Positions 4,281 to 57,343 of a stretch of DNA of 64,000 nucleotides are shown piece after piece. The notes beneath the pieces are model-generated. The model was given only the letters and a program-made list of their open reading frames with translations, searched no databases and was not told where the DNA came from. The stretch spans positions 1,922,001 to 1,986,000 of the forward strand of contig ML978125.1 of assembly GCA_010015805.1 (NCBI GenBank), given 5' to 3'. Source of the stretch: Rhizodiscina lignyota (lineage: Eukaryota). A program made the position numbers and the translations under genes. Every line of letters begins with the position of its first letter. The stretch's first letter is position 1.

Positions 4281-5483
4281 CTAATTGCCTTTCGCCTGGA
4301 CCTTTGGCACGACTTTCAGCGAGAAGTCGACATGCTTGACTCCTTGATGTATGCTGCTCGAGCTGATCACATCCACGTCCTCGCACACGTACGCCTCGAC
4401 ATTCTCCGGCGTTAGTCCCCCACTCACTTCAACCAGCGCCCTTGCCTCGTTTCCTCGTCCCCATTTATCTTTCAACTTTTTTGCACATGCTCTTACCCCT
4501 TCGCCAGTGAAGTTGTCAAGCATAACAACATCGGCTCCTGCTGTGATCGCCTCGTCCGCCTCCTCAAAGGACTGGCATTCGACTTCGATCTTGATAGCAA
4601 AGCCACCTGCTGACTTTGCTGCGTGAACGGCTTGGGTGATACTGCCACAGCTCCAAACGTGGTTGTCTTTCAACATAGTCATTGCGCTTAAGTCGTGCCG
4701 ATGAGGGTCGCAGCCGCCAACCAGCATGCCATATTTCTCGACTAGTCTGAATCCCGGCGTTGTCTTACGAGTGCCGGCGAGGGTATTCGAGTATCCAGCT
4801 TTTCGTAGTAGAGAGAGCAAATTTGATGACGCTGTTGCTACGCCAGAACAGCGTGCCAATGTGTTCAGCGCTACTCGCTCCCCGAGAAGGAGTTTGCGGA
4901 CAGGACCACGCACAGTTGCGACATGGGTTTTACCGCCTTCGATATAGCTACCTTCGGGATAGTGCCATTCCACACTACATATAATATCAGATAAGATGTG
5001 CTGATTATTGATGGCTGTCGAGACCTTACGTGCAATCGAGTTGTTTGAAGACCTCGTCAAAAAAGGGTAGTCCTGCGACCACTCCCTGCCGAGAGATTCA
5101 GGTAAGAACTATCATAAATCGATTGAATGAACTGAAGATGGTGATGGAACTGGGGAGGAACTGGGGAGGAGCCATTTTGGAGGGCATAAGTTAATGACCT
5201 CGATAACTGAGAGTGTTCACTCAAGGACAGCGTAAAAAAACAGAGTTCAGAAACGGGAATGGGCCGTTTCAGAGAATAAGCATGTAGATGCAAGACAAGC
5301 GATTCTGATTACCTTGCTCTTGCCCAATAGCTTCGCCTCTGCCATATCGTCCCCTACGACGAAACCTCCATAGTCGAAACTCGGGGTGTCTTCCTCCAGC
5401 CACTCCGCCACCATGCGCTTGTATGTCTGCGGTAGCAAATGCGCCACAGTGCCCTTCGCGGGGGCACCCTCTGTCGATGGCAT
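4281..5483 (-). CDS. BNA6: Nicotinate-nucleotide pyrophosphorylase (quinolinate phosphoribosyltransferase); exons 5483..5313, 5085..5030, 4974..4281
   Basis: [59 protein letters not shown] and DFSLK; splice junctions keep the frame. Confidence 0.96.
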
Positions 5484-6236
5484 GATGATAGAATTCGAAA
5501 TTGGTCTGGCGAACTTATTGAAGGATGGATGAGTATTATGTGCTCTTGATTCTATTTAGCGTTGACCCATCCAAGGCGGACCCGAACAAACCCGACAGGG
5601 GGCATTCACTCCACATCACCACCTTCCTTCCTACATATATACATTTACCCATCAATGTCTAAGATGATAAACTATCCATTTTACAAGTCCCATGCTCAGC
5701 ATATCGTTGACACTTCTTTGCTTCGGTACTCTCGTCCTTTCAAGCTCGAGATGGGTTGTGTGGGAGCTATTCGGCGCAGCCGAAGGGTAGCAAATCGACG
5801 ACAAATATCATACGTTAATGGTAAGGCTGGCAGAGAGGGGCTGCAAAGGCAACTACTTGGCTTCATCATTGCCGCGTCAACGTGCAGAACTGGGCTTTTC
5901 AGCTCGGGTGCTTCAGCGAATGATGAGTTCGTGGAACTCGTGGAACCGTGGCTGGAGGGAGCCGTGTAGTTCACAAGGCATCCTGAAGACTGCAAGGCTG
6001 TGAGGCTGAGCGCAAAGAAGCAACTGCAACGTCTTATTTCTGGCTCAAGTTTTCTTTCCTACTGTTCAGTTATACCAATTTGACTGCTCTACCTATGTTT
6101 CTGCGACGAAGTCATATCTCGTTGCAATTCTCTCATTCTCTTTCGCAAAAGAAGCAGATTTCATGGATCATCGTAGTATCAAATTTCTTCTTCTACGCTG
6201 AAGGACCGCATCGGATGAGACTGGGTTGACACGACA

Positions 6237-9200
6237 ATGACGGACCCTCTATCAATAACTACCGGCGTCCTCACTCTCCTTGGTGTGACTTACCACGTAG
6301 GCTGCGAGTTGAAGAAATTCCGCGATGGCGTGGCTGCCATTGACGCGGTCATTGGATCACTCATTGACGATGTCGATGCCCTTCACAATGTGCTGGAAGC
6401 TATGAAAGAGACCTTTGGCCAGCCGGATACTGTGACAACACTGAATGCTACCGGACACATAGGCAATCATTGGCGAAACATGTCTCGAAGCCTAGGCGAT
6501 GCTGAGGGAACCTTGTCTGATCTTTTGCTTGTGCTTCAAGATGTCAACAAATGTACGACGTTCCTAGATGGTCCTCGAAAACAGCTTCGCTACAAAGCCA
6601 TGTCAGATCGGATTTCGCGATATAGCAACCAGATTTCATCCTACAAACAGACATTGCAATTGTCCCTGCAGACCTTGGTTTTGTGAGCTTTCCATAATCT
6701 TACTAACGTGCCGTGCTGACTCTTTCGTAGATGGAACCAAATAACGATACGAGCAACGACGGATAACATCATGCCTGGTCTCGACGATTTGAATAAAAGT
6801 ATTCGAAAGATCGCGCTTCAGATCACAACGAGATTAGAGAAACTGGAATTACTTCAAGGTGGTGCAGTGGAAGCCCAGACGAAGATTGAAGCTGTCGTTA
6901 TGTCGAACTTGAGAGAATGTGTCCGGTCGTCCGCGACAATCGTGTCGTCAGCATCAACGATTATGGCTAAACTTAGCGACAGGCCTTCAACGACTTGTGA
7001 ATCTGACGTTGCAGACCTTCTCCCACCGCAAAATAATCACCTCGTGGGAAAATGGATGGCGTCAGTACCGGTCTTCGAAGCCGACTCTTTGGATGTTGAA
7101 AGCCCTCCCCAAGTTCCACCCAGTGTCATCGCTTCACAAGTTCTCGAATATCCAGAGGAAGACGCGGACTCGGACTCGGACCTCGAGAACGAGCTTGCTC
7201 GTGTCCTGCTAAAGCACGGGAAAGATCAAATGGAGGCGGGAAATTACGAGAGGGCGGAACGAAATCTTCGGAACTGCTTATCTCGCCTCGCCAGACCTTC
7301 TGGTTCAAGTCCAATCTCTAAGAATGACGTCCGCAGTCTCCTGGTAGATTCTCTCATCAAACAGAGCAAGTGGCATGATGCTGGACAAGAGTTACGCAAA
7401 CAGCTTGCTTGGGACGAAGGAGTCAGAGAGCGGGGAGATCAGAAGCGTCTCCTGGACATGGCTCTTCTTGTAGATGTGCTCATGACACAAGACAAGCTCT
7501 CTGAGGCGCAAGTCTATGCTCGACGTCTGCTTTCGGAGTATCGGGAGCTTGGGGATCGTGGCCACGATGGCGTTGAACTCACTTTGCGGACCCTGGTGAG
7601 GATATGTCAGGCAGAAGGCAACAACGAAGATGAGGAAGCTTACTCTTCAATGCTCGTGGTGTTCTTTCAAGAGTCTGTCAGTGGTGCACCTGAATTAACC
7701 GCGCAATACCCACCTGAGGATAGAGGCGATCTAGCGGTGTCGGAATTTCCAGTTCCTCCTTCCCATGAAGTCACCGGGAGATTGGCATTAGCACCAGTGA
7801 TTGAGGTCACAGAAGAACAGCCACAAATCCATGGGATTGCCGAAGAGGTAGTTTCCAAACCCGATAGAACGCGCCGATTCTCGTTTGAACCCGAGCACTC
7901 GAAACCAGTACAAGCAGTTGATGGGGGAGAGCAAAACCAAGAGCAAGGTGGGAATCAACACAACTCTGCAGAGACTTCTCAGAATTCAGATTCCAACTTC
8001 CAAGCGTTTGGAGAGGGCCCGAAGTTGACGCGATATGATAGCAAGCAGTTCACGGTAAGCTGAATTGGGGTTTCTGCCTTGAGGTTGTATCTCAGCTGAT
8101 GACATATTCTTTCCCTGCAGATGCCACAAACTATCAAGTCCACTGCAGATATGCGGGAGCAAATCCATGCTCCAAAATCTGCATTACCTACCATCAGCCG
8201 ATCCCCATGGTTGAAAGTGAACAGGCAGTTCCCTCTCAGACGGCAGCGTGGAACGTCCCTCGAACTTCCACCGGTTCTGCGGTCCATCTCAGAAGGAGGC
8301 CTGGGCTCCAACGTACTACCGGACCACGTACCCATTGGCACAACAAAGGTTACAACCATTCAGGCGTCTGAGTTAGATCCCATAGATGCTCAGAGGATCG
8401 AAGAAAATGATACTCAACCTCCTACGTCAGGGGAAGCAAGGATAAGTGCTGACTGCAGTCTCTCGACAACTAGTTTCAACACATTTGAAACTCCCCGGAC
8501 GAAATCCAGAAGAGTTGAATTCAGGAGGAAGCTGCTATGTATTGGTGATCCGCTTTGTGGAAAGACATGCTTATTGAGGTTTGTCATTTCTAGCAACTAC
8601 TTCCGCTGTTTACTAACAGTGTCAATTCTCCAGTCGACATGCAAAAGGCTCCTACGCAAGGGTACGAGGAAATCGGGGAGATGACCTCTGATGTTACTCT
8701 AACAATATCGCAGTGGATGAGTACGACCGCCTTCCAGAACTACATTTGCAATGTTAGTATCGCCTCTATGACAGTCGAGTTTGCTTTCTACGACACAAAC
8801 GGCGTGATGGATTACGACCGAATACGTCCGATGTCGTATCCGAACACAGACATCATCCTATTATGCTTTACAATTAACGAGCCCCACGCCCTATCAAACA
8901 TTGAAGAAAAAGTGAGTAGTGGGTATAGTAACGTTGCTGCTTATGCTAAGAGGACCATCAAGTGGGTAGACGAAATTCGCCGCTACCTAGACGGCGTCGA
9001 CGTCGTGCTCGTTGGGAATATGTCGGACCTCCGGGATGATCCAGGACAGCGTCAAGAGGATATGATTAGTACCCAAGAGGTGATTATTTGCCCCAAATGG
9101 CCAATTCTGTGCTAACATCTCCAAGGCTGAGGAATTCGCGGAGCGCATGGGTGCTCTTAAGTACTTCGAATGCTCCGCTAAGACCGGGGAGGGCGTAAAG

Positions 9201-9320
9201 GAACTTTTCGAATTTGTAGCGATGAATTCGATCATCAAAAGTCGCAGCCGAGCACAGAACAGACGAAGCTTCAACCGCCTGTTCAGGAAGTCGATGCAGT
9301 CCCTGTCGCTTCGCTCGTAG
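6237..9320 (+). CDS. Fusion of HeLo-like/SesA-type N-terminal domain, TPR-like helices and C-terminal Rho-family GTPase; exons 6237..6682, 6731..8054, 8121..8578, 8634..8661, 8714..8911, 8963..9079, 9126..9320
   Basis: N-terminus MTDPLSITTGVLTLL is typical of fungal STAND N-terminal helical domains. TPR-like GKDQMEAGNYERAERNLRNCL. Rho motifs KLLCIGDPLCGKTCLL, TAFQNY, DTNG-DYDRIRPMSYP, LVGNMSDLR and YFECSAKTGEGVKELFE. All six introns are GT..AG with branch-like sites and preserve frame. Confidence 0.8.
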
Positions 9321-9526
9321 GGCTGAAGGAAGCTTCTCACGAGAAGACTTTTGCTGCAGCTCATATATGTCGTTTAAGCGAAGGCAGACTTTCAAGGACC
9401 TTTGTTGTTCAGGCGTTTTAAATCGCTCTACACAATGTATTTATAAAGCAGCAACTGCTTTGGGACCCTAGATGAAAAGACTACGAACGCCGACCAAACC
9501 TCGCAATGCAGAAGTGATTATACACA

Positions 9527-11128
9527 TTATGGGAATCCAAAGCCCTCTGGGAAGTGGAAACCTCCACCTCCGCCGCCTCCTTGTGCGTGGAACTTGAAAT
9601 GTTGTTGTCCACCACCCTGCTGGAAGAAGAACTGTTGGCCTCCCTGACCGCCGAAGGGGAACGGGCTTCCCTGGAACGGATGACCACCTTGTTGGCTCAT
9701 TGGGTCGTTCGGATCGTCCCCCTTGTCGAACCTTGCTTTCAACTCTTCGTCTCCTAGCACCTCATAAGCTTCGTTGATGGCAGCCATCTTCTTCTCTGCT
9801 GCTTCCTTCGTAATTCCCTGCGCCGCAGCTTTGTCGGGGTGGTATACCTTCGACAGCTGGCGATAGGCGCGCTTGATCTCGCGTTCATCAGCATCCCTGG
9901 ATATGCCAAGGACTTTGTAGTAGTCCTTCTGTTTCGAGCGCTTAAGCAGCGTTTGCGCCTCGTTGAGCAGCTCTTGGAGCCGATGAGAACCCTGATGGTG
10001 TTGTTTTGCATCGTTGAGTGTGCGGATAGCGGCCTCAAAATCGTCTTCTGCGATCTGCTGCTTCGCCTGAGAGAGTGATGCTGATAAAGAAGTTGGGTTG
10101 TACTCGAGAGTTTCTCGGCAGTATGTCTCCGCGCGCTTGTGGTTGTTCATCTCCATGTACGCCTCGCAAGTAAGTTCCACGAGCATGCCGTAGAGACCTT
10201 CTGGTGATTTTTCGTGGATGTATCCCTGGGTCCGATATTCTTTGCTGTCCTCCTTCACTTCATCCAGCAGCCCCGGCTCCGCCCCTTGTTTGGCCAACAG
10301 CTTCACCGCAGCGTTGAACTTCCTCTCTTCCATGTTCTTCCTCACTTTCTTGATCTGTTTGTCAAGTGCCTTCTCCCGCCGCCTCAACGCCATGCACACC
10401 TTGCTGTCCGGGTCACTTTGCAGACACTTTGCGATCTGTTGCAGCGCTTTCTCCGTCTCGCCAAGGGAGAAGAAGCTCTCTGCGCTAATCTGCAGGTGGG
10501 GCTCAGTATTTCCAGAATTTATCTGCAGAACGTGCTGCAAATCGCTGATTCCTTCAGCAACTTCTCCCTTTTCGAACCGACACCGTGCTCTTAATTTTCG
10601 TAATTCCAGCGCGCCTCCAGCGACCATGAGCGCCACTCCGGCATGCTGCAAACATCCATCCCAATCGTGCGACTTGACAGCTTCCTCTGCTAACACTACT
10701 GCGCCTTGTGCTTCTTCTAGTTCAGCGACCTCAGAGCCCCCTGTCTTGCCCGCCGCCTCATAGTCCTTCCGTGCAGCTTCCCAATCGCCGCTCCTGCTCT
10801 TTAGCTTGGCCCGTTGTAATAAAGCTCCTTCGAAATCTGGTTTGATAGCAAGTGCTCTATCGAAGTCTTGCCGTGCTTGGACATTGCGGCCAAGGGAGAG
10901 GTAGGCGGCGCCGCGCTTGAAGAGGGAGAGGTAATTCTGCGGATCGCGTGAGATAGCGATGTCGAAGTAGGTGAGAGCATCTTGCGCATTGCCTTTCCCA
11001 AGCTCCGTACTAGCAGAACTGAGGAGCTGGTTAACAGGCGTATCGGCGGGTATATCAGCGGCCGAGAGCGCTGCGACTGTTGAAATGATCGCAGCGCTGA
11101 GCGCAATGCTGATGAATGGAACGCGCAT
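9527..11128 (-). CDS. ER DnaJ/TPR co-chaperone (DNAJC3/p58IPK, Jem1-like); single exon
   Basis: Signal peptide, multiple TPRs, J domain KDYYKVLG...YHPDK and G/F-rich tail. Confidence 0.93.
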
Positions 11129-11400: not shown

Positions 11401-11601
11401 ATGGCCTTTAGCATCCGTATGTCGAACCTTGTACTCCTTGTCACAATTGATTCGCATTGACAGCTGGAACACTCGGATTTCTCATTTGTGAGCTCGGGTT
11501 TTAAAAGAACTATCACGATGATACTTGTTTGAGTGGAGGTCTTGAGACATATCCTTTCACAGGTCGCGGCGCGTCCTTGACGCGTCGGTGAAGACATCAC
11601 G

Positions 11602-14600
11602 ATGCCAGTACGACGAAAGGAATTCCGGCGGATGGAGAAAACCGGGCAGACTTCGTACGGACCAAGACGACCGCAAACCATATCGACATCCGCTTTGCGA
11701 AGTTCGGAGGCCACTTCTCAAAATGAAAGGATCGAATCAACCCGCCTCGCTAACAAGATTGATGAGTCCATGGGATTTGAGAGATATGACTCCGGCAAAA
11801 AGCGCATCGGATGGTTATGCAACATGCATAGCACGAGTGTTGAGGACGAAAGGGTACCTGGTGGCCGAGCTGGTGTCGACTTCTACTTCATTGAGGACGA
11901 TGGGGGGACTTTCAAGGCAACGGTTGAATATGATCCTTACTTCTTAATCGCGATCAAAAGGGGGAAAGAGGCTGAAGTCGAAGAGTGGTCCAAGCGAGCA
12001 TTTGAAGGTCTCGTTAAGGCTATCAAGAGAGTGGAAAAGGAAGACTTGAAAATGCCGAACCATCTCCTCGGGTATCGACGAACTCTCCTTCAGCTTTCCT
12101 TTGCCAATGTCAACGATTTGCTCGCAGTGAGAAGAGTCATCATGCCAATTGCCGAGAGGAACAAAAGCAAATTGAATGCCATGGACACGTATGCGGAAGT
12201 TGCTAGTGCAAACGCAGGATTCGACATTTTTGACGAAGATCAAGAGTATGAGAAGCGCTCGAATGGCACTGTTGATGCCAGTGACTTCATTGTCGACATT
12301 CGAGAGTACGATGTGCCATACCACGTCCGTGTTGCGATCGACATGGACATTCGAATTGGAAAATGGTACACGGTCGAAGCGAAACATGGCGTTGTTACCC
12401 TCAGCTGTATCGAGGAGCGACTCCAGCGTGCAGATCCTGTCGTGATGGCATACGATATCGAGACGACAAAGCTTCCGCTCAAGTTCCCAGATGCTGCGAT
12501 CGATCAAGTCATGATGATATCGTACATGATTGATGGACAAGGCTTTCTCATTACCAACCGAGAGATTGTGTCCGAGGATATTGCCGACTTCGAGTACACC
12601 CCAAGGCCAGAATATGAAGGTCAATTCCTGATCTTCAATGAGCCAGACGAGCGCGCAGTCTTGGAACGATTCTTCGAACATATCAAGGAAGCTCGACCTA
12701 CCGTCATGGTCACATACAACGGCGACTTCTTTGACTGGCCCTTTGTTGAAACTCGAGCGAGCATTCTGGGAATCGATATGTACCAGGAAATCGGCTTCCG
12801 TAAGAATAGCGAAGACATCTACCAATCGGATTATTGTGCGCACATGGATGCGTTTGCTTGGGTCAACCGTGACAGCTACCTGCCGCAGGGAAGTCGTGGT
12901 TTGAAGGCCGTGACAGTCGCAAAGCTAGGATACGACCCAGACGAGCTTGATCCTGAGCTGATGACCCCATATGCGAGCGAACGACCGCAAACGCTTGCTG
13001 AGTACTCAGTCTCCGATGCAGTTGCGACTTACTACCTGTACATGAAATACGTTCACCCTTTCATCTTTTCCCTTTGCACCATCATTCCGCTTGGTCCAGA
13101 CGACGTCTTGCGCAAAGGAACTGGAACGCTTTGCGAGATGCTTCTCATGGTGCAAGCATACCAAAAGGAGATTTTGCTTCCAAACAAGCACCAAGCGCCA
13201 AAGGAGTCTTTTTGGGACGGACACCTGCTGGAGTCGGAAACTTACGTAGGCGGACATGTAGAGAGTATTGAAGCAGGAGTGTTTCGAAGCGATATTCCTT
13301 GCAATTTTGCACTGGACACGACTGCGATCGATGAGCTATTGGAAGATCTCGATGCTGCATTGATGTTTAGTATCACTGTGGAAGAAAAGAAGAAGATGGA
13401 AGATGTCGAAAACTACGATGAAGTCAAAGCGCAGATAGCAGAGAAGCTGATGCAACTAAAGACGACGCCAAACAGAAACGAGAAGCCATCGATCTATCAC
13501 TTGGATGTTGCGTCTATGTATCCGAATATCATGACGACCAACCGACTTCAGCCTGACTCTATGATACAAGAGTCTGATTGTGCTGCGTGCGATTTCAACC
13601 GCCCTGGAAAGACTTGCGACAGAAGACTACCGTGGGCGTGGCGCGGAGAGTTTCTCCCTGCCAAGCGAGACGAATACAACATGATCCGACATGCTCTCGA
13701 AAACGAGAACTTTCCAGGGCGATATCCCAACAGTCCTCCCAGAACCTTCCACGAGTTGCCATACGACGAACAAGCCGCTTTCGTCAAGAAGAGATTGCAA
13801 GATTATAGCAAGAAGATCTACCACAAGATTCATGATGCGCGAACGATGGAAAGGGAAGCCATCATCTGCCAGCGAGAGAATCCTTTCTACGTCGATACTG
13901 TCAAGGACTTCCGCGACCGACGATACGACTTCAAGGGCAAGCAGAAAGTGTGGAAAGGAAAGACAGAAGCGCTAAAAGCTGGTGGAGCAAGCGCTGCCGA
14001 AATCGATGAAGCAAAAAAGATGATTGTTCTGTTTGATTCACTACAGCTTGCTCACAAGGTCATTCTAAACTCATTCTACGGCTACGTGATGCGGAAAGGA
14101 TCGCGGTGGTATTCCATGGAGATGGCAGGTGTTACGTGTCTAACTGGCGCTCGAATCATCCAGATGGCTCGACAGCTTGTGGAGCGGATCGGCAGACCTC
14201 TGGAATTGGATACTGATGGTATCTGGTGTATTCTTCCAGCCACCTTCCCTGAGAATTTTGCGTTCAAGCTGAAGAATGGCAAGAAGATGGCTATTTCTTA
14301 CCCCTGCGTCATGTTGAACCATCTGGTACACGCTAAATTCACAAACCATCAATACCAGACGCTTGTGGATCCTGCAACATTCCGCTACGAAACTCACAGC
14401 GACAACACGATCTTCTTCGAAGTGGACGGACCGTACAAGGCCATGATTCTGCCAACCAGCAAAGAGGAAGACAAGAATCTGAAGAAGAGATATGCAGTGT
14501 TCAATCATGATGGCAGTTTGGCAGAGCTGAAAGGGTTTGAGGTGAAGAGAAGAGGTGAACTGAAGCTCATCAAAATCTTTCAGACTCAAATCTTCAAGTT

Positions 14601-17600
14601 CTTTCTTGAAGGCTCAACTCTCGCGGATTGCTACGCGAGCGTTGCAAGAGTCGCAGATCAATGGCTTGATGTGCTTCACCAGCACGGTTCAACGCTTGCT
14701 GATGAAGAACTTATCGATCTGATTTGTGAGAACAAGAGCATGGCGAAGACGCTGGAGGAGTACGGGACACAGAAATCGACAGCCATCACGACAGCAAAAC
14801 GCCTAGCAGAGTTCTTGGGAGAACAGATGATCAAAGACAAGGGGCTTAACTGCAAATACATCATCTCGTCCAGACCAAGAAATGCTCCTGTTACCGAGCG
14901 AGCGATTCCTGTTGCGATCTTCTCGGCTGAGGATCAGGTCAAACGGCACTTCCTGCGAAAATGGCTTCGAGAAGATCCTAGTGATATGGACCCTCGAACT
15001 ATCATTGACTGGGAATATTACCTTGAGCGTCTTGGATCTGTGATCCAGAAACTGATCACGATTCCTGCAGCACTGCAGAAGGTTCGCAACCCAGTTCCAC
15101 GCGTAGCACATCCAGAATGGCTCGAGAGGCGGGTCCGGCAGAAAGACGATGTCTTCAAGCAGAAGAAGATGACAGATATGTTCGAGACAAAGAAGATGCT
15201 TGCAGATATCGAGCCCAACACCGTAGCCAACCGTATGGGCGATCTGGAAGACTTCGGCTCGTCCCAGCTGAAGAAGCCGGTGAAGAATGGGACGGTGACG
15301 AAGATGGTGCAGAAACGCAAGGCCCCAGAGGCCGCTGTACCTGCTCAGGTTGACCCATATGCTGCTTTACCTGCGAAGATGCCATCAATAACGGAGGACT
15401 ACCCAGGCTGGCTGCAATATCAAAAGAAGAAGTGGAAGATCCAAAAGCAAGCCCGGATCAGACGCCGCCAACTATTCGGTGAAAAGCGAACCGATGCGGC
15501 TGATGCGATAGGCACTTTCTTCCGCAACCAAGCCGAGCTCCAGTACATCAGTACTTGGCAGCTACTGCAGCTAAGAGAGAGCGAAGTCCTTGGAGAAGTC
15601 CGAGCATTCGTGCTCATCGGCAAGAAAATCCATGCACTCAAATTCATTATCCCAAGAGTCCTGTATGTCAACGTCAAAGAGGAGGAGCTTCCCGATATCA
15701 AGGAGATCGAGGGATGCAAGGTGGAAAAGGTAGTTGGACATACACTCCCGAACGGACACCCATCGGTCCACCTATTCAAAATGACGATGCCGGAACAGAC
15801 ATTCGTTGGCGAATCACAGAAGCTGGGTTTACTGTTCAATCACCCCAGTGTAGAGGGCGTGTACGAAAAGCAGATGCCGCTGAACATTCGTGCTGTCCTG
15901 GAGCTTGGCAGTACCTGCACATTCGACGAGAAGCAGAAAGGAGTGCTCGGCAAGGGATTAGAGCAAGGATTCGACCTCTCCACTCTTCGGAAGGTTCCTG
16001 CTCGCCAGCCTTACCTGGAGGGCGTAGAGATGGGATACCTTTACCTATACCACTTGATCACAGCAAGCGATCGATCTGGAGAGAGAGAGGTCTTTGTGCT
16101 GATATCGCCATTCACGAACAATGCACAAATGATTCTGCTCAGTCCGACGCGAGAGGAACAGAGCTGGCCAAATGTTGACAGGATATACGAAAAGGAGTTC
16201 TCGGATCGGCTTGAGAAAAACGGTGGTGACCAATGGCAGCCTGGTATCGAGTATCAGTCCAGCGTCAATTTCAAGAGAACGCAGCACATCTCGCGACGGA
16301 AAGCGCTCGAGGAGCTCTCACTGGCCATTAAAAAGATGAGAAATGAAGAGAAGGAGAAACCGCTGCTGCTTGTGCTACAGTCTCAGCATCATCGGATGTT
16401 GCCGCACGAAGTTCCCATCATGAAAGAGTTTCCCATCATTCCGCTTAAGCCTGATGAGGCGAGTGGACAGCGACTCGGCCTGCAATGGCGAGAGTCCGTT
16501 TCTAAGCGGATGGTCAATCACTATCTCAATTTTGGCTCATGGATTTCACATCTCACGGACCTTGCTCGATATGGCGACATCCCCCTTTGCAACCTGGAGA
16601 CGCACGACCCGCGATTCTTGATAGACGTTGCGTATGCTCGGCGACTGCAGAAGGAGAAAGTGGTGCTATGGTGGTCTGCTGGGCCGAAGCCCGACCATGC
16701 TGGTCATGAAAAGGACGATGTTCTCAGCCCACTAGAGACTGTCGAAATGCCATCGGTGAACACTCCAGGAACTTATTCTTCTGTCTGTATAGACTTGAGC
16801 ATCCGCAATCTCGCCATCAACACAATCCTCGCATCTGCCTTGATAAACGAGGCAGAAGGCAGCGACTCCATCTCGTTCAATCCTGCTGCTCCAACGGAGA
16901 ATGGTGAGGACGAAGGCTCGCAAATCATCTACTCTGAGAAGGCCTTTGCGACAGCTGGCATCGCGGTGCTTCGTGAAATGGTCAAAGCCTGGTGGTCGGA
17001 AGCCTGCAATGACAACCAGATGGCGGATGTTATGGTCCAGCATCTAGTACGATGGGTGGAGAATCCTGGCTCCTTCCTGTACGACCGAGCTTTGCACTAC
17101 TACGTTCAGATGATGTCGAGGAAAGCTCTTCAGCAGCTTATGACCGATTTCCGGCGTGTTGGCTCAAATGTCGTGTTTGCTAGCGCACATAGGCTGCTAC
17201 TCCAGACCACGAAGGCTGAAGTCGGAAACGCGTTCGCTTATACTGAGTACATCCTGAAGGCTGTCAAAGCAAAGCCACTGTTCAGCTTTCTGGAGCTCGA
17301 CATCAGAGAATACTGGGACTACCTTGCGTGGTCCGACGAGCACAACTACGGCGGTAAGGCAACCGAAAAAGTCGTAGAGCAAGAGAATCAGCAACTCAAC
17401 CTCGTCATGTGCTGGCAGCTGCAAACATTCTTGCCGAAGCACTTGCAGGAACCCTTCCACAATTGGATCGTCGAGTTCATCGAGCTGATGCACGCCCGGA
17501 AGAGGCCTGCTGTCGTCCCAGGACCAGATGGGTCGACGGCACCTCGAGTGACACAGCTGCCATTTAAGTCACTGACGGAAGACCCGGAATCAACAACACC

Positions 17601-18324
17601 CACGAACCATCTAACTAAGAGCTTCACGAAGCCATTGCTCAAGCAGCTATCCAGCTTGATAAAGCAGCATAGCACTGAGAGTTTGCAAGAAATGTTCCAA
17701 CTAGATTGGACGTTTCCAATGCTGGCGGGTGGCCAGGTTTCTGGCACAAATCCGGTGTTGCAGCTCGCGAAGAGCATCATCCACGTCCTCTCCCTTGACA
17801 GAAGCATTAGTCTCGAAGTACGACTTCTTAGACGCGATATGCTGGCTCTCTGCGACATCAAAGAATTTGCCCCTGAAGCTTCCTGGATCAATCCAAGTGC
17901 CAGCCTTAAGATTGAGGGGCTTGTCTGCGAAGAGTGCTGCGCCGTCCGCGATCTGGATCTCTGTCGCGACGGAGATGTAATACCGCCTCCAAAGTACGAT
18001 GAGAGGAGTGACAACGTACCACGACCAGCCTGGAAATGTCTTGCGTGCCACGCGGCCTATGATAAGCGGCGCGTGGAGGAGAAATTGATTGCGGAGGCAG
18101 AGAAATTGGTGGTTAAATGGACGACGCAGGATTTGAAATGTGCGAAGTGCGCAAAACTAAGGGTGAATGAGTTCATGGAGCATTGTGCCTGCGCAGGGCT
18201 GTGGGTGGAAACGGTCAACAAGCATGATGTGCGGAAGAGGCTTGATGTCTTTGCGAGGGTTGCGGAGGCGCATCAGTTGCGTATTTTGGGACTTGTAGCG
18301 GAGGATATGAAAGAGGGATTATGA
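11602..18324 (+). CDS. POL2: DNA polymerase epsilon catalytic subunit; single 2240-codon ORF
   Basis: Exonuclease motif AYDIETTKLPLKFPD, polymerase motifs YHLDVASMYPNIM, KVILNSFYGY and PLELDTDGIW, and C-terminal CysA/CysB. Confidence 0.99.
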   Translation: MPVRRKEFRRMEKTGQTSYGPRRPQTISTSALRSSEATSQNERIESTRLANKIDESMGFERYDSGKKRIGWLCNMHSTSVEDERVPGGRAGVDFYFIEDDGGTFKATVEYDPYFLIAIKRGKEAEVEEWSKRAFEGLVKAIKRVEKEDLKMPNHLLGYRRTLLQLSFANVNDLLAVRRVIMPIAERNKSKLNAMDTYAEVASANAGFDIFDEDQEYEKRSNGTVDASDFIVDIREYDVPYHVRVAIDMDIRIGKWYTVEAKHGVVTLSCIEERLQRADPVVMAYDIETTKLPLKFPDAAIDQVMMISYMIDGQGFLITNREIVSEDIADFEYTPRPEYEGQFLIFNEPDERAVLERFFEHIKEARPTVMVTYNGDFFDWPFVETRASILGIDMYQEIGFRKNSEDIYQSDYCAHMDAFAWVNRDSYLPQGSRGLKAVTVAKLGYDPDELDPELMTPYASERPQTLAEYSVSDAVATYYLYMKYVHPFIFSLCTIIPLGPDDVLRKGTGTLCEMLLMVQAYQKEILLPNKHQAPKESFWDGHLLESETYVGGHVESIEAGVFRSDIPCNFALDTTAIDELLEDLDAALMFSITVEEKKKMEDVENYDEVKAQIAEKLMQLKTTPNRNEKPSIYHLDVASMYPNIMTTNRLQPDSMIQESDCAACDFNRPGKTCDRRLPWAWRGEFLPAKRDEYNMIRHALENENFPGRYPNSPPRTFHELPYDEQAAFVKKRLQDYSKKIYHKIHDARTMEREAIICQRENPFYVDTVKDFRDRRYDFKGKQKVWKGKTEALKAGGASAAEIDEAKKMIVLFDSLQLAHKVILNSFYGYVMRKGSRWYSMEMAGVTCLTGARIIQMARQLVERIGRPLELDTDGIWCILPATFPENFAFKLKNGKKMAISYPCVMLNHLVHAKFTNHQYQTLVDPATFRYETHSDNTIFFEVDGPYKAMILPTSKEEDKNLKKRYAVFNHDGSLAELKGFEVKRRGELKLIKIFQTQIFKFFLEGSTLADCYASVARVADQWLDVLHQHGSTLADEELIDLICENKSMAKTLEEYGTQKSTAITTAKRLAEFLGEQMIKDKGLNCKYIISSRPRNAPVTERAIPVAIFSAEDQVKRHFLRKWLREDPSDMDPRTIIDWEYYLERLGSVIQKLITIPAALQKVRNPVPRVAHPEWLERRVRQKDDVFKQKKMTDMFETKKMLADIEPNTVANRMGDLEDFGSSQLKKPVKNGTVTKMVQKRKAPEAAVPAQVDPYAALPAKMPSITEDYPGWLQYQKKKWKIQKQARIRRRQLFGEKRTDAADAIGTFFRNQAELQYISTWQLLQLRESEVLGEVRAFVLIGKKIHALKFIIPRVLYVNVKEEELPDIKEIEGCKVEKVVGHTLPNGHPSVHLFKMTMPEQTFVGESQKLGLLFNHPSVEGVYEKQMPLNIRAVLELGSTCTFDEKQKGVLGKGLEQGFDLSTLRKVPARQPYLEGVEMGYLYLYHLITASDRSGEREVFVLISPFTNNAQMILLSPTREEQSWPNVDRIYEKEFSDRLEKNGGDQWQPGIEYQSSVNFKRTQHISRRKALEELSLAIKKMRNEEKEKPLLLVLQSQHHRMLPHEVPIMKEFPIIPLKPDEASGQRLGLQWRESVSKRMVNHYLNFGSWISHLTDLARYGDIPLCNLETHDPRFLIDVAYARRLQKEKVVLWWSAGPKPDHAGHEKDDVLSPLETVEMPSVNTPGTYSSVCIDLSIRNLAINTILASALINEAEGSDSISFNPAAPTENGEDEGSQIIYSEKAFATAGIAVLREMVKAWWSEACNDNQMADVMVQHLVRWVENPGSFLYDRALHYYVQMMSRKALQQLMTDFRRVGSNVVFASAHRLLLQTTKAEVGNAFAYTEYILKAVKAKPLFSFLELDIREYWDYLAWSDEHNYGGKATEKVVEQENQQLNLVMCWQLQTFLPKHLQEPFHNWIVEFIELMHARKRPAVVPGPDGSTAPRVTQLPFKSLTEDPESTTPTNHLTKSFTKPLLKQLSSLIKQHSTESLQEMFQLDWTFPMLAGGQVSGTNPVLQLAKSIIHVLSLDRSISLEVRLLRRDMLALCDIKEFAPEASWINPSASLKIEGLVCEECCAVRDLDLCRDGDVIPPPKYDERSDNVPRPAWKCLACHAAYDKRRVEEKLIAEAEKLVVKWTTQDLKCAKCAKLRVNEFMEHCACAGLWVETVNKHDVRKRLDVFARVAEAHQLRILGLVAEDMKEGL

Positions 18325-43023: not shown

Positions 43024-43497
43024 TTTTCGCTGCGCCAAAATAACTCTCTTGAGAAAATGGTGAGCGTCGAGTGGGGGAGCGTAAGTGCTGGAGATGTAGT
43101 AAAATCTAGAGACTTCCTTTTACTATTAAGAACTGGAATTACGTACAACTGGGGAAATTTAGTGAAGTGTACAAAGCCGCGACAATCAATGGGCATCAAA
43201 GGCAAATGAAAGAGTTGCAAAGGTGGATGGATTTGTGGCCGGAAGCTGATGCAGCCTCCCAACTGTGAACCTCCGCCAAGCCGCCCAAAACGTCACGTCA
43301 AGCTTGGAAACGCGTAAAACACGCCTTTTTCCACGTCGCGAAACACCCACTCACAAGCATTGCGCAAACCAAAAACTCCCAGCGCATAATCTCCATACCT
43401 TTGCAATTGCAACCACGAGATTTTCACACGTGTGTCGCGCTATCCAGAGAAGAAATTCGCGCCGTGGATTTCACAAAGCTCTTCAATACACGATGCA

Positions 43498-46400
43498 ATG
43501 AACGGCACTCCGCGACTCCGCTCTGCTTTCCCAGACACGCCACAAACTGATCGCAGAAGAAGTCCTGCCAACTCGCGGTATGGAGCATCTCCTGCTACTC
43601 CAGGCTCGGCCTCGCGAGCAAACGGCACTCCGCTACCTCCAGTCCCATCATCACGACCTGAGTCGTCCGCACCTCTCATCCCGTTCGATACGATAGACGC
43701 CGCCTCACAACGACTATATGTCGCGACATTCTATATTGGGCTATGGGCATGGCGGCTTTATGACTTCTACAATCTCCTTATTGACGATACGGAGAGTTTG
43801 TGGCTGTTCATGAAATGGATTGCAATAGACGGCATCTTTCTTTTTGGACTGCCGGCTTTGAGGATACCATGGCTTGAATGGAGCAGTGCTGCGATGACAA
43901 TCCTATTTTTGGCGCATGCATTATTGGATGGCATGCTAATGTTTAAAATTGGCATTCCCATCACAAGCTGGATAGCTGCTCTCGTTAAATTGCTATACGA
44001 CAGAGAGATAGCAATCTCAGAAATATCGGTCAAACCTGGCAACGTCCTCCACAATGCCTCCCTCATCATGGGGCGTCAGGTCATCCATATCCTACCAGAA
44101 GGCTCTGCGATGCTGAATCCAGAAGGCCACTCGTTTTGCCTTGGTACGACGAGGCTTGAAGTCCAGCTGCCGATTCAAATCAACCAAACAACGCCAATCT
44201 CAATCGAGCTACTCCGAATCGATTTGGATTCCATGGAGCAAGAGATTGTCACAATATCTGGATCGACCGCGAGGAAATTGAAGAGAGATGCGGCCCGAGA
44301 ACTCAAGAACGATGACACAAGCAGTCCGTTGACTCTGCGATATCCCGTAAAGAAAACAGGATACTACATCTTGTCGAAAGTTGTGGATGAGTCAAAGCTG
44401 GAAGTTCAACCACGGCGGTCACACGCTGCTGTTGTCTCTTGTCCCTCCGCAAGAGTTAAGCCGACCCTCCCTGATCGCTGCAGAGACGAGCTGTCCAACA
44501 TCGCTCTTGAAGTGCATGGGACTCCGCCATTGAAGCTTAAATATCGGAGATCTGTCAACGAGGATGAAGCGCAGCGAGGATCCTTTCAGAGCCTACAGCC
44601 CGACGACTTTGTTTCTCCTTTATCGAAGCTGCAACCCATGAGTGCTTTGACCAAGACTGGAGAGATAGATGTTTCTTGGGCGCAAGCGCGCACTGTCAAT
44701 ATTCCGCTCAATGAGACGCTGCAGACAAGTGGACTATGGAGCTACGATATCGAAGAGGTCCAAGATGGCCTGGGCAATGTCATCAGCTATGCCAAACTCT
44801 TCGAGAAGAATGAAAGGTCTAAGATCCATGCCCAGGATCTTCAACAGTCTTTCAGCGTTCACGAGAGACCAAAATTGTCATTCCGTGGATGTGATCCTCG
44901 ACATCCCCTTCGTGTTCCAAAGGGTTATTCCACATCACTCCCCTTTCAACTTGGATCTACAGGGAAAGACGGGACCATTTCTGATGTGCATAATATCGAA
45001 TACTTTTACACTCCAGAGCAAGACATCTTGCCGAGCGGAGGGCAAAGTACAAATGCGTTATCCAAACAAATTGTAATCACCCCTGGCCAGGAGCAGCATA
45101 TCCAGGAACCGGGACTCTATTCCCTTTCTTCCGTTTCGACAAACTTCTGCGGAGGAGAGGTCCTTGAGCCCTCGTCCTGCGTGCTTCAGAATCCCGCACA
45201 GCCCGATCTTTCGTTCGAGGAAGAGGACATCACCGACAAATGTGCTATGAAGCCCATCGGGAAAAAGATATCCCTCGATCTTATTGGCACCCCGCCCTTT
45301 CAAGTACGATACTCCGTTCGCCGGCCTGGCCAGAAAGGAAAGAACGAAGCCTCAAAACGATTCGATGGCCACAGAGGCGAGCTCACCCTTACACCATACG
45401 ACGCGGGAAGTTACGAATACCAGTTTGAAGATATCTCAGATGCCGTGTATCCAAACCACAATATACACGGTAAGAATCTGGTTGTACGGATGGACGTCAA
45501 GCCTCCGCCATATGCACGATTCGTTTCCGCAGGTTACGGAGTAGCAGATCAATGCATTGGCGAGCCAATCGAATTGAAAGTCTCCCTGCAGGGTGAAGGG
45601 CCTTGGGACTTGGAGTATGAGATTATCCATGCAGGCAAAAGGACGAAGTATCCTCTGAAAGACATACAGCAGAGTCCAATCACGATAGTGACTGACAAGG
45701 TGAACAACGGCGGGGATTATACGATCAGCCTCTCCAGTGTAACAGACAGCTCCGGGTGCAAAGAATATCCAAAGGAGGAGGCGAAGATTAGTGTCAGGCA
45801 TCAGCGACCAAAGGGAGGCTTTGCGCCAATCGAAGGTAAATACAGCGTAAAAGCACTACAAGGCAAGAGAGTGAGTCTGCCGGTTCGGCTGACAGGAGAG
45901 CCGACGTGGACGGTTGCGTACCAGCACCTTTCTGGGGCGTCGGAGAAAGTGACGATCATAACCATGCAAGACGCAAACGATTTTATCGACGTTGTTGAAG
46001 CCGGGACGTACAAGCTTATGGACATCAAAGATCACGTCTGCCCTGGAACAGTGGATACGGCTGCAGACAGCTTTAATGTAACATGGCTGGAGAAGCCCAA
46101 GCTTCACGTTACAGATAGCGAGCTTGTCACACACAACAGCGATACGAAGTACACAAAGAACGCCGTTTGCGAGGGTGATGAGGATAGTCTGGATCTGTCT
46201 TTCAGTGGTAAGCTGAGTTTCACGCCCCGCATACTGAATAATGCACTAATACCTTATAGGCTCCCCTCCCTTCAAACTCGCATATGAAGAACACCGTCGG
46301 CCGACAAACGGCGCCAAATCCATGCGGAAGCATGAGCTTCCTGGTGCTTTAGGTCTTGCGTCCATCCAGATGGACACAACTCAGGCTGGAGAATACGAAT

Positions 46401-47446
46401 ACAAGTTCACCCAACTCTCGGACTATAATTACGACCACGACTCTCGTGATTTCACACCAATGACAGTCTCGCAAAAGGTCTACTCCAGGCCATCTGCGCG
46501 CTTCGCCAACCCAGGCAAAACATACAGCTACTGCGCTTCAGACCACGAAGAGGCAAGCGAGACAATGGAGACCATACCGATCAAGCTGATTGGTGAGCCG
46601 CCATTCAGCATCGAAGTCGAGCTTAAGCATCATTCGGCTGCAAAGCCAGAATCAATCTCTGTCTCAAACATTCCGGGCAAGTCTTATGACCTCCGCATCC
46701 CACACCGTCACCTTCACCTGGGCAACTCTGCGCTCTCCATTCGGAAAGTGCGCGACTCGCGAGGCTGCCAGTCTGCATCTCTTCCTCTCACGCCTCCATC
46801 TCGAGAGAAAGATGGCCAGAGCAACCAACGCGTCCTTCTCTCTGTACACTCTGCTCCATCCATCACTCCTCTCGAGCCACAGACAGACTATTGCGTCGGC
46901 GACCATGTCTCTTTCAGTCTTGCCGGCCAGCCTCCCTTCAACGTCTTCTACACCTTCGAAGGCGTCGAGCGCAAGGCAAGCTCCCAATCCACCACATTCC
47001 GCCGTCTCGCCGAGAAACCCGGCGTCTTCACCATCAAGGCAGTATCCGACTCTGCCTCTACCTGCCGAGCGCCAGTCATCGATCCGCTTGCGCATGGAGT
47101 ACAGAAGAGCATACATCCTCTTCCAGCTGTACGCGTGTCCAAAGGTAGGGACACCCGCGTCGATATCCATGAGGGCGGCGAGGCGCAGATCCTATTTGAG
47201 TTCGAAGGCACGCCGCCATTTGAGTTTACGTGGACGCGTAGCTCGCTGGAGGATAGGCGCACAGGTAGGAAGGCAGAGGTGCTGGAGACTAGGACAAGTA
47301 CGAGCCAAGAGCATAGTCTGAGGGTCACGGCGAGCGAAGAAGGTGCTTATGAGGTTGTCTCTGTAAGAGACAAGTGGTGCGGTGTCAGTAAGATGGGGCA
47401 GGGAAAGGGTGGAGGTGGGAGGGCAGATAGGCTGTTGACATATTGA
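43498..47446 (+). CDS. POM152: Transmembrane nucleoporin Pom152; exons 43498..46207, 46260..47446
   Basis: MNGTPRLRSAFP, IDAASQRLY, LPALRIPWL, I.GRQVIHILPEG and repeated luminal Ig-like units (G.PPF...Y, C.G). Confidence 0.93.
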
Positions 47447-55808: not shown

Positions 55809-57343
55809 ATGCAGAACGGCTCACCTCCCAGCTATGCTCTTCCACAGTCCCATCAGGATGTATGCGAACAATTCAAAATGCCCCGCGGTCGCGCTGTTCT
55901 GACGCTGTATAGCTCATGGAGAAGTCCCTCGTCGACTCTGATCCTGAGATCGCAGAGATTATGGTATTTAACCCTCTAAATCATCATTGGAAACCAACTG
56001 ATTCGCAATTCTAGAAAAAGGAAATTCAACGCCAGCGCGAATCTATCCTCCTCATCGCCTCTGAAAATGTCACCTCCCGCGCCGTCTTCGATGCCCTGGG
56101 CTCGCCGATGTCCAACAAATACAGTGAAGGATATCCCGGTGCACGTTACTATGGCGGCAATGAGAATATCGACGCGGTCGAGCTTCTGTGTCAAAAGCGT
56201 GCCTTACAAACGTTTGGGCTGGATCCAGAGAAATGGGGAGTCAACGTCCAGCCCCTCAGTGGCAGTCCTGCGAATCTTCAGGTCTACCAGGCCATAATGC
56301 GACCTCATGAGAGGCTCATGGGCTTGGACTTGCCACACGGAGGCCATTTAAGCCACGGTTACCAGACACCGCAGAAGAAGATTTCTGCCGTCTCGACGTA
56401 CTTCGAGACATTCCCATACCGTGTCGACCTCGATACTGGCATCATCGATTATGACCGGCTGGAGGAAAATGCTCTGATGTACAGGCCGAAAGTACTCGTT
56501 GCTGGCACTTCAGCATACTGCCGGACCATTGATTACGCTCGCATGCGCAAGATCGCGGACACCGTTGGATGCTACTTGATGGTCGATATGGCTCATATTT
56601 CCGGCTTGATTGCTGCTGGCGTAAACGACTCACCCTTCCCATATGCGGATATTGTTACGACAACCACACACAAATCCCTTCGTGGGCCACGTGGCGCTAT
56701 GATCTTCTTCCGCAAGGGCGTGCGGAAGACAGATCCAAAAACAGGCAAAGAGACCCTCTACGACCTTGAAGGACCAATCAACTTCTCCGTCTTCCCAGGT
56801 CACCAGGGCGGCCCGCACAACCACACAATCACTGCTCTTGCCGTTGCCCTAAAGCAGGCCCAGACTCCAGAATTCAAAGCATACCAAAGCCAGGTCATCA
56901 AGAATGCCAAGGCCCTCGAGCAGGAATTCAAGTCGCGTGATTACAAGCTTGTTACGAACGGAACGGACAATCACATGGTCCTTCTTGACCTAAAGCCACT
57001 CTCCCTGGATGGTGCAAGAGTTGAAGCAGTTCTGGAGCAAGTCAACATTGCATGCAACAAAAATACCACCCCTGGTGACAAGAGCGCGCTTACGCCTTGT
57101 GGTATCAGGATCGGAGCCCCAGCGATGACAAGCCGAGGCATGGGAGAGGAAGACTTTAAGAGAGTCGTTGGATACATTGACACCTGCATTAAGCTTTGCA
57201 AGACGGTGCAGGCTGGCCTGCCGAAGGAGGCCAACAGGCTGAAGGATTTCAAGGCCAAAGTTGCGGATGGCAGCGTTCAAGAGATCGCTGAGCTGAAGAA
57301 GGAGATTGCAGCATGGGCAGGCACCTTCCCGCTACCAATTTAG
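55809..57343 (+). CDS. SHM2: Cytosolic serine hydroxymethyltransferase; exons 55809..55859, 55913..55963, 56015..57343
   Basis: [31 protein letters not shown] lysine [12 protein letters not shown] and FPGHQGGP; no presequence. Confidence 0.97.

Follow-up and report, generated by a model that had tools for sequence, protein, structure and literature searches.

What kind of protein is encoded at positions 6237 to 9320 on the plus strand of this stretch of Rhizodiscina lignyota DNA, and could it act as a cell-death sensor? The window, meaning the whole stretch of 64,000 nt that was analysed, had been described at this locus by a sequence-only reading as carrying a fusion of a HeLo-like domain, tetratricopeptide repeats (TPR) and a Rho GTPase, which was proposed to be a cell-death sensor resembling a NOD-like receptor (NLR; NOD, nucleotide-binding oligomerisation domain) or an integrated decoy. 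The three-part architecture (N-terminal helical domain, TPR, Rho GTPase) with a linker was borne out by Pfam, profile and PDB comparisons. Judged from its sequence, the gene is a member of a large, uncharacterised family in filamentous ascomycetes, and the architecture is firm: a PF17111 domain, a conserved segment with an acidic stretch, a TPR module of the kinesin-light-chain (KLC) type, a linker, a GTPase derived from Rho1 and a basic tail with F-x-R-L-F. It is not an NLR, since the NOD module is absent. What appears to be new is the wiring of a HeLo-like domain to an atypical Rho head. The function favoured here, a little short of an even chance, is an MLKL-like design in which a regulatory pseudo-enzyme Rho head and a TPR latch would control a four-helix bundle.

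Domain architecture and the Rho-type head

Exon 1 was matched to PF17111 (PigL_N, formerly Helo_like_N) in Pfam with an E-value of 7.7e-8 and 32.4 bits, above the gathering cut-off of 27.2, and the N-terminal helical domain proposed earlier could thus be assigned as HeLo-like. The match begins at residue 2, at the extreme N-terminus, and residues 5-23 form the most hydrophobic 19-mer in the entire protein of 921 amino acids (aa). This hydrophobic first helix is conserved. PF17111 was also matched at E<=1e-3 in 27 of the 29 relatives having an N-terminus, and the entries of relatives in UniRef are still named "Fungal N-terminal domain" or "Helo-like-N". In fungal NLRs and in amyloid-triggered executioners, PF17111 domains are typically found at the N-terminus (PMC9815663; bioRxiv 2024.11.26.625400).

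In the structure models of two relatives, P0121 and P0003, the N-terminal domain was modelled as long helices with a predicted local distance difference test score (pLDDT) of 80-97. The P0121 model (393 aa, spanning the N-terminal domain and some of the TPR; mean pLDDT 84.7) contains six long helices in residues 3-224, followed by the part-ordered conserved segment, the disordered acidic stretch and TPR helices. Residues 1-152 of this model were aligned by VIA-align with the coiled-coil (CC) domain of potato Rx (Z 12.6, root-mean-square deviation 2.1, 107 aa), a score still in the range common among helical bundles. Alignments within the helical-bundle background were obtained with MLKL (Z 10.2, 100-117 aa) and with the CC-R domain of NRG1.1 (Z 10.2), and others with IncA (Z 13.3) and the N-terminal domain of Sw-5b (Z 11.8). 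Folds of the Rx, Sw-5b, MLKL and NRG1.1 type are compatible with those expected for a HeLo-like domain, and the models are compatible with a four-helix bundle of the MLKL/CC type.

For exon 2, only TPR_12 was found in Pfam, sub-threshold with an E-value of 0.0031. A family profile built from 73 sequences matched the TPR domains of kinesin light chains among PDB sequences with E-values of 1.1e-16 to 6.7e-13, and also the Podospora TPR 4y6c (E 1.2e-4). The structure model of a relative aligned with many TPR proteins at Z 10-11, and in ESM Atlas exon 2 recovered generic bacterial TPR clusters only (0.89-0.90). The TPR module is internal and short, about 160-180 aa. It is followed by a disordered linker of roughly 250 aa in the window, the equivalent of which has a pLDDT of 28-38 in the P0003 model. 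In one subclade the linker carries the motif HLVRLYMT(K/R)MSFPEIKE(C/Y)M (L006:2800-2939, L008:4800-4943 and the tail of P0046), with an apparent GTAAGT donor directly after it.

Just upstream of the TPR lies a near-invariant segment, S-D-F-G-D-x-F-P...R-W...T-V-Y-E-[FY]-[DE]-[DE] (residues 236-265 in P0121; window coordinates in Table 1). In the family alignment the Ser was kept in 71/72 sequences, the Trp in 70/72, the Phe in 60/71 and the Pro in 46/71. An acidic SDSD stretch between this segment and the TPR is part of the family architecture as well. In KLC, an LFP-acidic region located upstream acts as a cis ligand of the TPR (PMC6214655). The D-x-F-P, Trp and Y-E-acidic elements of the conserved segment recall, in position and composition, the LFP-acidic and W/Y-acidic cis ligands of KLC, and this analogy suggests that the segment and the TPR may form an intramolecular latch. 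In contrast to the family motif, the window copy has DLLP in place of D-x-F-P, and the likeness to the KLC motifs may be a coincidence.

The GTPase is encoded by exons 3-7 and was recognized in exons 5, 6 and 7, which matched Ras (PF00071) in Pfam with E-values of 1.2e-9, 4.6e-3 and 7.4e-5. The nearest solved structures for exon 5 were RhoA/B/C and fungal Rho1 (E 3.5e-19 to 5.6e-17), with Rac1 behind at 4e-15. The motifs are G1 GDPLCGKT, switch I STTAFQNY, G3 DTNGVMDYDRIRP, G4 GNMSD and G5 CSAKT. The residues that hold the nucleotide are kept (GDPLCGKT, the switch-I Thr, DxxG as DTNG, the Asp of G4, and SAK), and Val stands at the position of the catalytic Gln and Met replaces the Lys of NKxD (NMSD). 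Compared with RhoA, the Rho insert is short by about 6 residues; in the P0003 model an insert helix was seen at 722-730. The protein ends in ...FNRLFRKSMQSLSLRS (...SLSLRS), and the CAAX box is absent. The earlier claim of a full Rho fold was therefore right as to a Rho-subfamily GTPase and too broad as to its completeness, with the short insert, the Val for the catalytic Gln and the missing CAAX box. By sequence comparison the head is a Rho-subfamily domain derived from Rho1, and it is an atypical Rho because both the catalytic Gln and the CAAX box are lost.

These losses are shared by the family. Among 26 aligned family GTPase domains the Gln after DxxG was kept in 4, three of which belong to close Fusarium/Neocosmospora relatives, and was lost in 22, while DxxG itself was intact in 19. 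No CAAX box was present in any of the 15 complete family C-termini (no Cys at -4), and many of these tails are basic, with F-R-R-L-F. The heads span from very Rho1-like to strongly degenerate; the GTPase of P0001 matched Aspergillus Rho1 with an E-value of 1.8e-72, at an estimated identity of about 70%. Rho proteins lacking the catalytic Gln hydrolyse GTP poorly. Without a CAAX box the usual Rho route to membranes would be closed. The window head keeps the Rho1-like switch II stretch DYDRIRPMSYP and the equivalents of RhoA Thr37, Asn41 and Tyr42, so that proteins recognizing Rho1 could still recognize it. Two tandem Rho-like domains were observed in each of two relatives, P0096 (816-990 and 1027-1249) and P0118. 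Fungal Rho proteins ranged from 151 to 338 aa in a survey of 2021 (PMC8146680).

Gene continuity and the family

The locus was read as 7 exons and 6 introns giving the 921-aa protein, with the start ATG at 6237, the stop TAG at 9318-9320 and a spliced length of 2766 nt (921 codons plus the stop). All 6 introns are of the GT..AG type, a CTRAY-like branch site is visible in most, and their lengths (48, 66, 55, 52, 51 and 46 nt, in order) are typical for filamentous fungi. The six frame-preserving introns reported before do join one open reading frame (ORF), but the description is valid for the spliced product alone, since the length is a multiple of three in only 3 of them. A competing gene was not found on the opposite strand, where the ORFs are short (no Pfam scan was made of these).

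A single spliced gene carrying both the N-terminal domain and the GTPase is supported by comparison with relatives. PF17111 or the N-terminal/TPR module was joined with Ras in one protein in NCBI models from Hyaloscypha variabilis, several species of Fusarium and Neocosmospora, Cladosporium allicinum and Diaporthe amygdali. In the 94 relatives of at least 550 aa, the family GTPase domain was matched in 26 and a strict P-loop motif was present in 20 more. A single ORF from the module, ending at most 25 residues past GK[ST], was seen in 28 of the 94, which points to a conserved intron site matching intron 3 of the window. In a looser test, applied to the 53 relatives whose TPR anchor motif is followed by 150 aa or more, a P-loop or GTPase was found in 37; the remaining 16 were truncated or had other ends. 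The linker varied from 134 to 792 aa across relatives. At the C-terminal side, residues 651-917 of the window protein could be aligned with P0037 and residues 691-920 with P0007, its closest relative, whose RYTKGSFSK aligned with the product of the micro-exon 4.

The exon order was also recovered by a metagenome scan with the family alignment, which is free of any gene caller and gave 17 loci. The N-terminal exon ended 45-80 nt before the module match in 15/15 loci with upstream DNA, so that intron 1 is conserved. Rho exons were present on the same strand in 9/10 loci with at least 2 kb of downstream DNA, or in 6/7 when four near-identical loci are counted as one. The module ORF reaches the P-loop without a stop in L007 and L012, and both ORFs end just past GK[ST]. 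In L003, L006, L008 and L009 the module ORF ends earlier and is then followed by Rho exons, so the window gene is not alone in having its linker interrupted by an intron. The site of intron 5 breaks the sequences of relatives too (aligned tails; loci L003 and L008), and the position of intron 6 is a gap in L007, L008 and L012. L004 was the sole locus of the ten without Rho exons; at L004:7500-8300, downstream of the module gene, a tandem repeat ...ASTNDQATGRRSRR... was observed in several frames and on both strands.

Alternatively, the locus could hold two genes, a HeLo-like/TPR protein stopping at the TGA at 8061-8063 and an N-terminally extended Rho starting from the ATG at 8121. Some observations weigh against the single gene. 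Exon 3 opens with this ATG, which makes a separate downstream protein formally possible. The case for intron 2 is made by splice signals and the comparison with relatives, and since this intron sits in the non-conserved linker, no alignment spans it. A transcript search for 6100-9450 returned no RNA record, only a DNA record. However, the gap between this stop and the ATG is just 57 nt, too short to house a terminator and a promoter; a canonical donor, a branch-like site and an acceptor are present within 8055-8120; and fusion is the rule among relatives. Two genes are accordingly considered very improbable.

The family was collected by an exhaustive HMMER search of cluster representatives with exon 2, which gave 336 representatives at E<=0.001, of which 71 reached E<=1e-30. 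Named members came from Sordariomycetes, Leotiomycetes and Dothideomycetes, so that the family is widespread and not peculiar to this genome. The nearest relative of the window protein is just 45-46% identical (the N-terminal match to P0007 is 45% over 311 aa), and the window protein itself was not encountered in the sequence collections searched. The database names of relatives are automatic ("hypothetical protein", "Helo-like-N domain-containing protein", "small GTP-binding protein"). In a quick FastTree tree of 148 module sequences, with local supports only, 60 were labelled as Rho-bearing and 82 as truncated or unknown; Rho-bearing sequences occurred in every major clade, and the window protein grouped with P0007 and P0037 in a well-supported clade of six. 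No description of the HeLo-like plus Rho architecture was found in the literature covered, which excludes subscription journals.

Other domains were detected beside the module in some relatives. In P0113 the N-terminal/TPR module, which matches window 6243-7655 with 32% identity (E 2.6e-66), is followed by a RhoGAP domain (PF00620, residues 550-700, E 4e-31). SH3 was found in P0069, WD40 in three proteins, UBA in P0144 and ankyrin in P0174. Relatives ending in UBA were considered as swaps of the head, and this was rejected on account of locus L003 (L003:3-3898): the module ORF ends UBA-like at 2330, a 262-aa ORF follows 31 nt on and runs into the P-loop GDPLCGKS, and the Rho exons end in ...SLRRLFRKD. 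The UBA-ending relatives (P0100, P0020 and P0144) may thus carry Rho too, cut off by ORF calling. The SH3, WD40 and perhaps RhoGAP forms may likewise be incomplete predictions with Rho further downstream. In P0006 (Coniochaeta ligniaria, 1120 aa) the module and a ...PPSIFGRVKR tail are present, and the GTPase region gave a weak match to a P-type ATPase fragment (PF13246, E 3e-4), perhaps because a domain was replaced or because the gene model is in error.

Coordinates and genomic surroundings

The features of the gene and the annotated neighbours are collected in Table 1. The sequence-only reading had placed the gene between two housekeeping genes, and these were confirmed as a quinolinate phosphoribosyltransferase and a DnaJ/TPR protein. 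Its comparison of the gene to an accessory insertion finds no support here, the region being rich in housekeeping genes and the family widespread. The window also encodes a glutamine synthetase-like protein, a DEAD-box helicase, an SMC-like ATPase and a UCH peptidase C12. No NLR or secondary-metabolite cluster was found in the 64,000 nt, the rest of the window being core housekeeping.

Table 1. Parts of the HeLo-like/TPR/Rho gene and other genes located in the window
Feature	Coordinates	Strand	Description
Exon 1	6237..6682	+	aa 1-148; PF17111 HeLo-like/PigL_N, four-helix-bundle part
First helix MTDPLSITTGVLTLLGV	6243-6287	+	hydrophobic
Intron 1	6683..6730	+	48 nt, GTGAGC...TACTAAC...TAG; in-frame TGA right at the donor
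Exon 2	6731..8054	+	aa 149-590; opens with the last two helices of the PF17111 domain
Conserved stretch NLRECVRSSATIVSSAST of exon 2	6906-6959	+
Conserved segment of exon 2	6999-7079	+	includes the invariant Trp
Acidic DADSDSDLENE of exon 2	7161-7193	+
KLC-type TPR module of exon 2	about 7194-7667	+
Disordered linker of exon 2	7668-8054	+	first part of the linker
Intron 2	8055..8120	+	66 nt, GTAAGC...CTGAT...CAG; within the linker; in-frame TGA three times (8061, 8097, 8100)
Exon 3	8121..8578	+	aa 591-742; linker, conserved pre-GTPase segment, then P-loop
P-loop RRKLLCIGDPLCGKT	8523-8567	+	in exon 3
Intron 3	8579..8633	+	55 nt; immediately 3' of the P-loop
Exon 4	8634..8661	+	28-nt micro-exon, codes (S)RHAKGSYAR
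Intron 4	8662..8713	+	52 nt, GTACGA...CAG
Exon 5	8714..8911	+	switch I STTAFQNY 8720-8743; G3/switch II DTNGVMDYDRIRP 8792-8830
Intron 5	8912..8962	+	51 nt; separates EEK from W
Exon 6	8963..9079	+	G4 GNMSD 9014-9028; shortened Rho insert
Intron 6	9080..9125	+	46 nt, GTGATT...CTAAC...AAG
Exon 7	9126..9320	+	G5 CSAKT 9171-9185; basic tail with FNRLF 9270-9284; stop; without CAAX box
Quinolinate phosphoribosyltransferase	4281..5108	-	upstream neighbour; Pfam QRPTase_C E 2.8e-56
DnaJ + TPR co-chaperone	9527..11128	-	downstream neighbour; Pfam DnaJ E 3e-20, several TPR families
DNA polymerase epsilon catalytic subunit	11581-18324	+
POM152 nucleoporin	43390-47446
Serine hydroxymethyltransferase (SHMT)	56015-57343

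Possible function and relation to known systems

In the MLKL-like design that is tentatively favoured, the Rho head would hold GTP yet barely hydrolyse it, like atypical Rho proteins, and would therefore offer the Rho1 machinery a site of docking or sensing instead of cycling as a switch. Together with the TPR, it would keep the membrane-directed four-helix bundle from acting, until a change in the Rho head frees the hydrophobic N-terminal helix for action on membranes. Studied members of the HeLo-like family act on membranes once they are released. MLKL, built of a four-helix bundle, a brace and a pseudokinase, shares the logic of placing a catalytically impaired head with an enzyme fold after a helical bundle; it differs in that its head is a pseudokinase instead of a Rho fold, and MLKL and HET-s were absent among the 60 matches listed for the family profile against PDB sequences, so the likeness has no link at the sequence level there.

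Several points weigh against this design, and that absence is one of them. Foldseek with the N-terminal/TPR model returned nothing from PDB at E<=0.001, and VIA-align itself warns that Z-scores below about 13 are common for helical bundles. In the full-length P0003 model (pLDDT 77.7; predicted template modelling score, pTM, 0.41) the N-terminal, TPR and Rho domains are confident and the linker has a pLDDT of about 30, and no confident arrangement of the domains was given. In P0007 the P-loop is GDPMCGKN and G4 is GTFSD; with the NMSD of the window copy, which is better preserved than P0007, this means that nucleotide binding may be decaying in the clade of the window. In addition, the present Pfam family name refers to a pigment-cluster protein, and cell-death activity has been shown for only a few HeLo or HeLo-like proteins (HET-S, HELLP).

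This last point also speaks for a scaffold or regulator of the Rho pathway without any death function, a reading nearly as good as the MLKL-like one and possible, if on the unlikely side. The N-terminal domain and the TPR would serve as adaptors for proteins or membranes, and the non-cycling head would tether them to Rho1 guanine nucleotide exchange factors, GTPase-activating proteins or effectors, in polarity, cell-wall integrity or septation. The Rho1-like switch II, the housekeeping surroundings without an NLR or accessory cluster, and the pairing of the module with signalling domains in relatives (RhoGAP, SH3, WD40, UBA, ankyrin) are in agreement with it. However, PF17111 domains typify the N-termini of fungal NLRs and amyloid-triggered executioners in the sources cited above, the hydrophobic first helix is conserved, and the usual access to membrane-bound Rho partners is gone with the CAAX box.

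The head could also be an integrated decoy or guard, which is rather improbable. Here the Rho1-like head would mimic Rho1, competitors would modify or bind it with toxins or effectors that target Rho, and the HeLo-like domain would be released. As would suit a bait, the Thr37, Asn41 and Tyr42 equivalents and DYDRIRPMSYP are kept while the catalytic residues decay; the close match of P0001 to Aspergillus Rho1 and the existence of the RhoGAP-bearing P0113 are circumstantial hints in the same direction. On the other hand, switch I is degenerate in many clades (P0079, P0107) and ill-suited to bait enzymes that modify switch I, the surroundings are housekeeping, and there was no sign of diversifying selection or lineage-specific expansion, though neither was sought. 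To our knowledge no toxin targeting fungal Rho1 has been described, which counts against the decoy too. The bolder form, a single-chain guard without NOD, in which a non-hydrolysing Rho1 look-alike baits the attackers of Rho1 and frees a HeLo-like pore-forming domain, is slightly less probable still. If true, it would be a single-polypeptide fungal counterpart of pyrin-type Rho guarding, and the RhoGAP-bearing relative would be a bait for those attacking a different node of this pathway.

An NLR-like receptor in which the small GTPase stands in for the STAND NTPase and switches oligomerisation, as first suggested, was not supported and is given hardly any probability. HeLo-like domains and KLC-type TPRs are listed among the standard parts of fungal NLRs (bioRxiv 2024.11.26.625400), and the family profile does match the Podospora TPR. 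But no NACHT or NB-ARC was detected by Pfam in the window exons or in the 55 relatives scanned (6 + 20 + 29). The order is effector-like domain, TPR, linker and GTPase; unlike in NLRs, the TPR comes before the NTPase, with a disordered linker of 134-792 aa between them, and the C-terminus is the GTPase instead of a TPR, ANK or WD sensor. The catalytic Gln is lost in most of the domains (22/26), and nothing points to oligomerisation driven by the GTPase. We know of no Rho domain that forms NOD-like rings, which is a further point against such a receptor.

Returning to the MLKL-like design, the protein can be set beside several known systems. Executioners of the HET-S, HELLP and HELLF type have death activity. 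With these HeLo and HeLo-like executioners and with NLR N-termini it shares an N-terminal PF17111 domain, a hydrophobic first helix and an all-helical fold, whereas in those proteins control lies with an amyloid motif at the C-terminus or with NACHT/NB-ARC; neither is present here, and TPR and Rho are found instead. Rnd, RhoH and RhoBTB are atypical Rho GTPases, and the head resembles them in its Rho-subfamily sequence, the loss of the catalytic Gln and the kept nucleotide-binding motifs; it differs in the absence of CAAX (0/15 tails), in an N-terminal extension of ~720 aa with its own domains, and in being fungal. For the TPR, KLC1/2 were the systems matched by the family profile (E 1e-16 to 1e-13). 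Pyrin and plant NLRs with integrated decoys couple the monitoring of a pathogen target to death or inflammation; the concept of a copied or monitored target joined to such an output is similar, but there is no homology, and no NOD is present here.

The name "Big Ras GTPase" was also considered for the family. Large fungal proteins with a Ras-like domain have been described under it, such as TBRG-1 of Trichoderma virens (PMC8146680). BRG proteins are, according to PMC13393502, paraseptins unrelated to the Ras superfamily, and the head here is a genuine Rho domain; the name was rejected for this reason, and the two groups are set apart by that description.

HeLo-like domains are known in two settings, as the output of NLRs and as the output of amyloid signalling. 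The family would give a third wiring of the HeLo-like domain, to TPR and a non-cycling Rho without NOD, and would extend the inventory of fungal GTPases by a large class of Rho proteins with several domains and no CAAX box. Since it is widespread and its parts are modular, a coupling of Rho signalling to regulated cell death in fungi would be testable by simple experiments.

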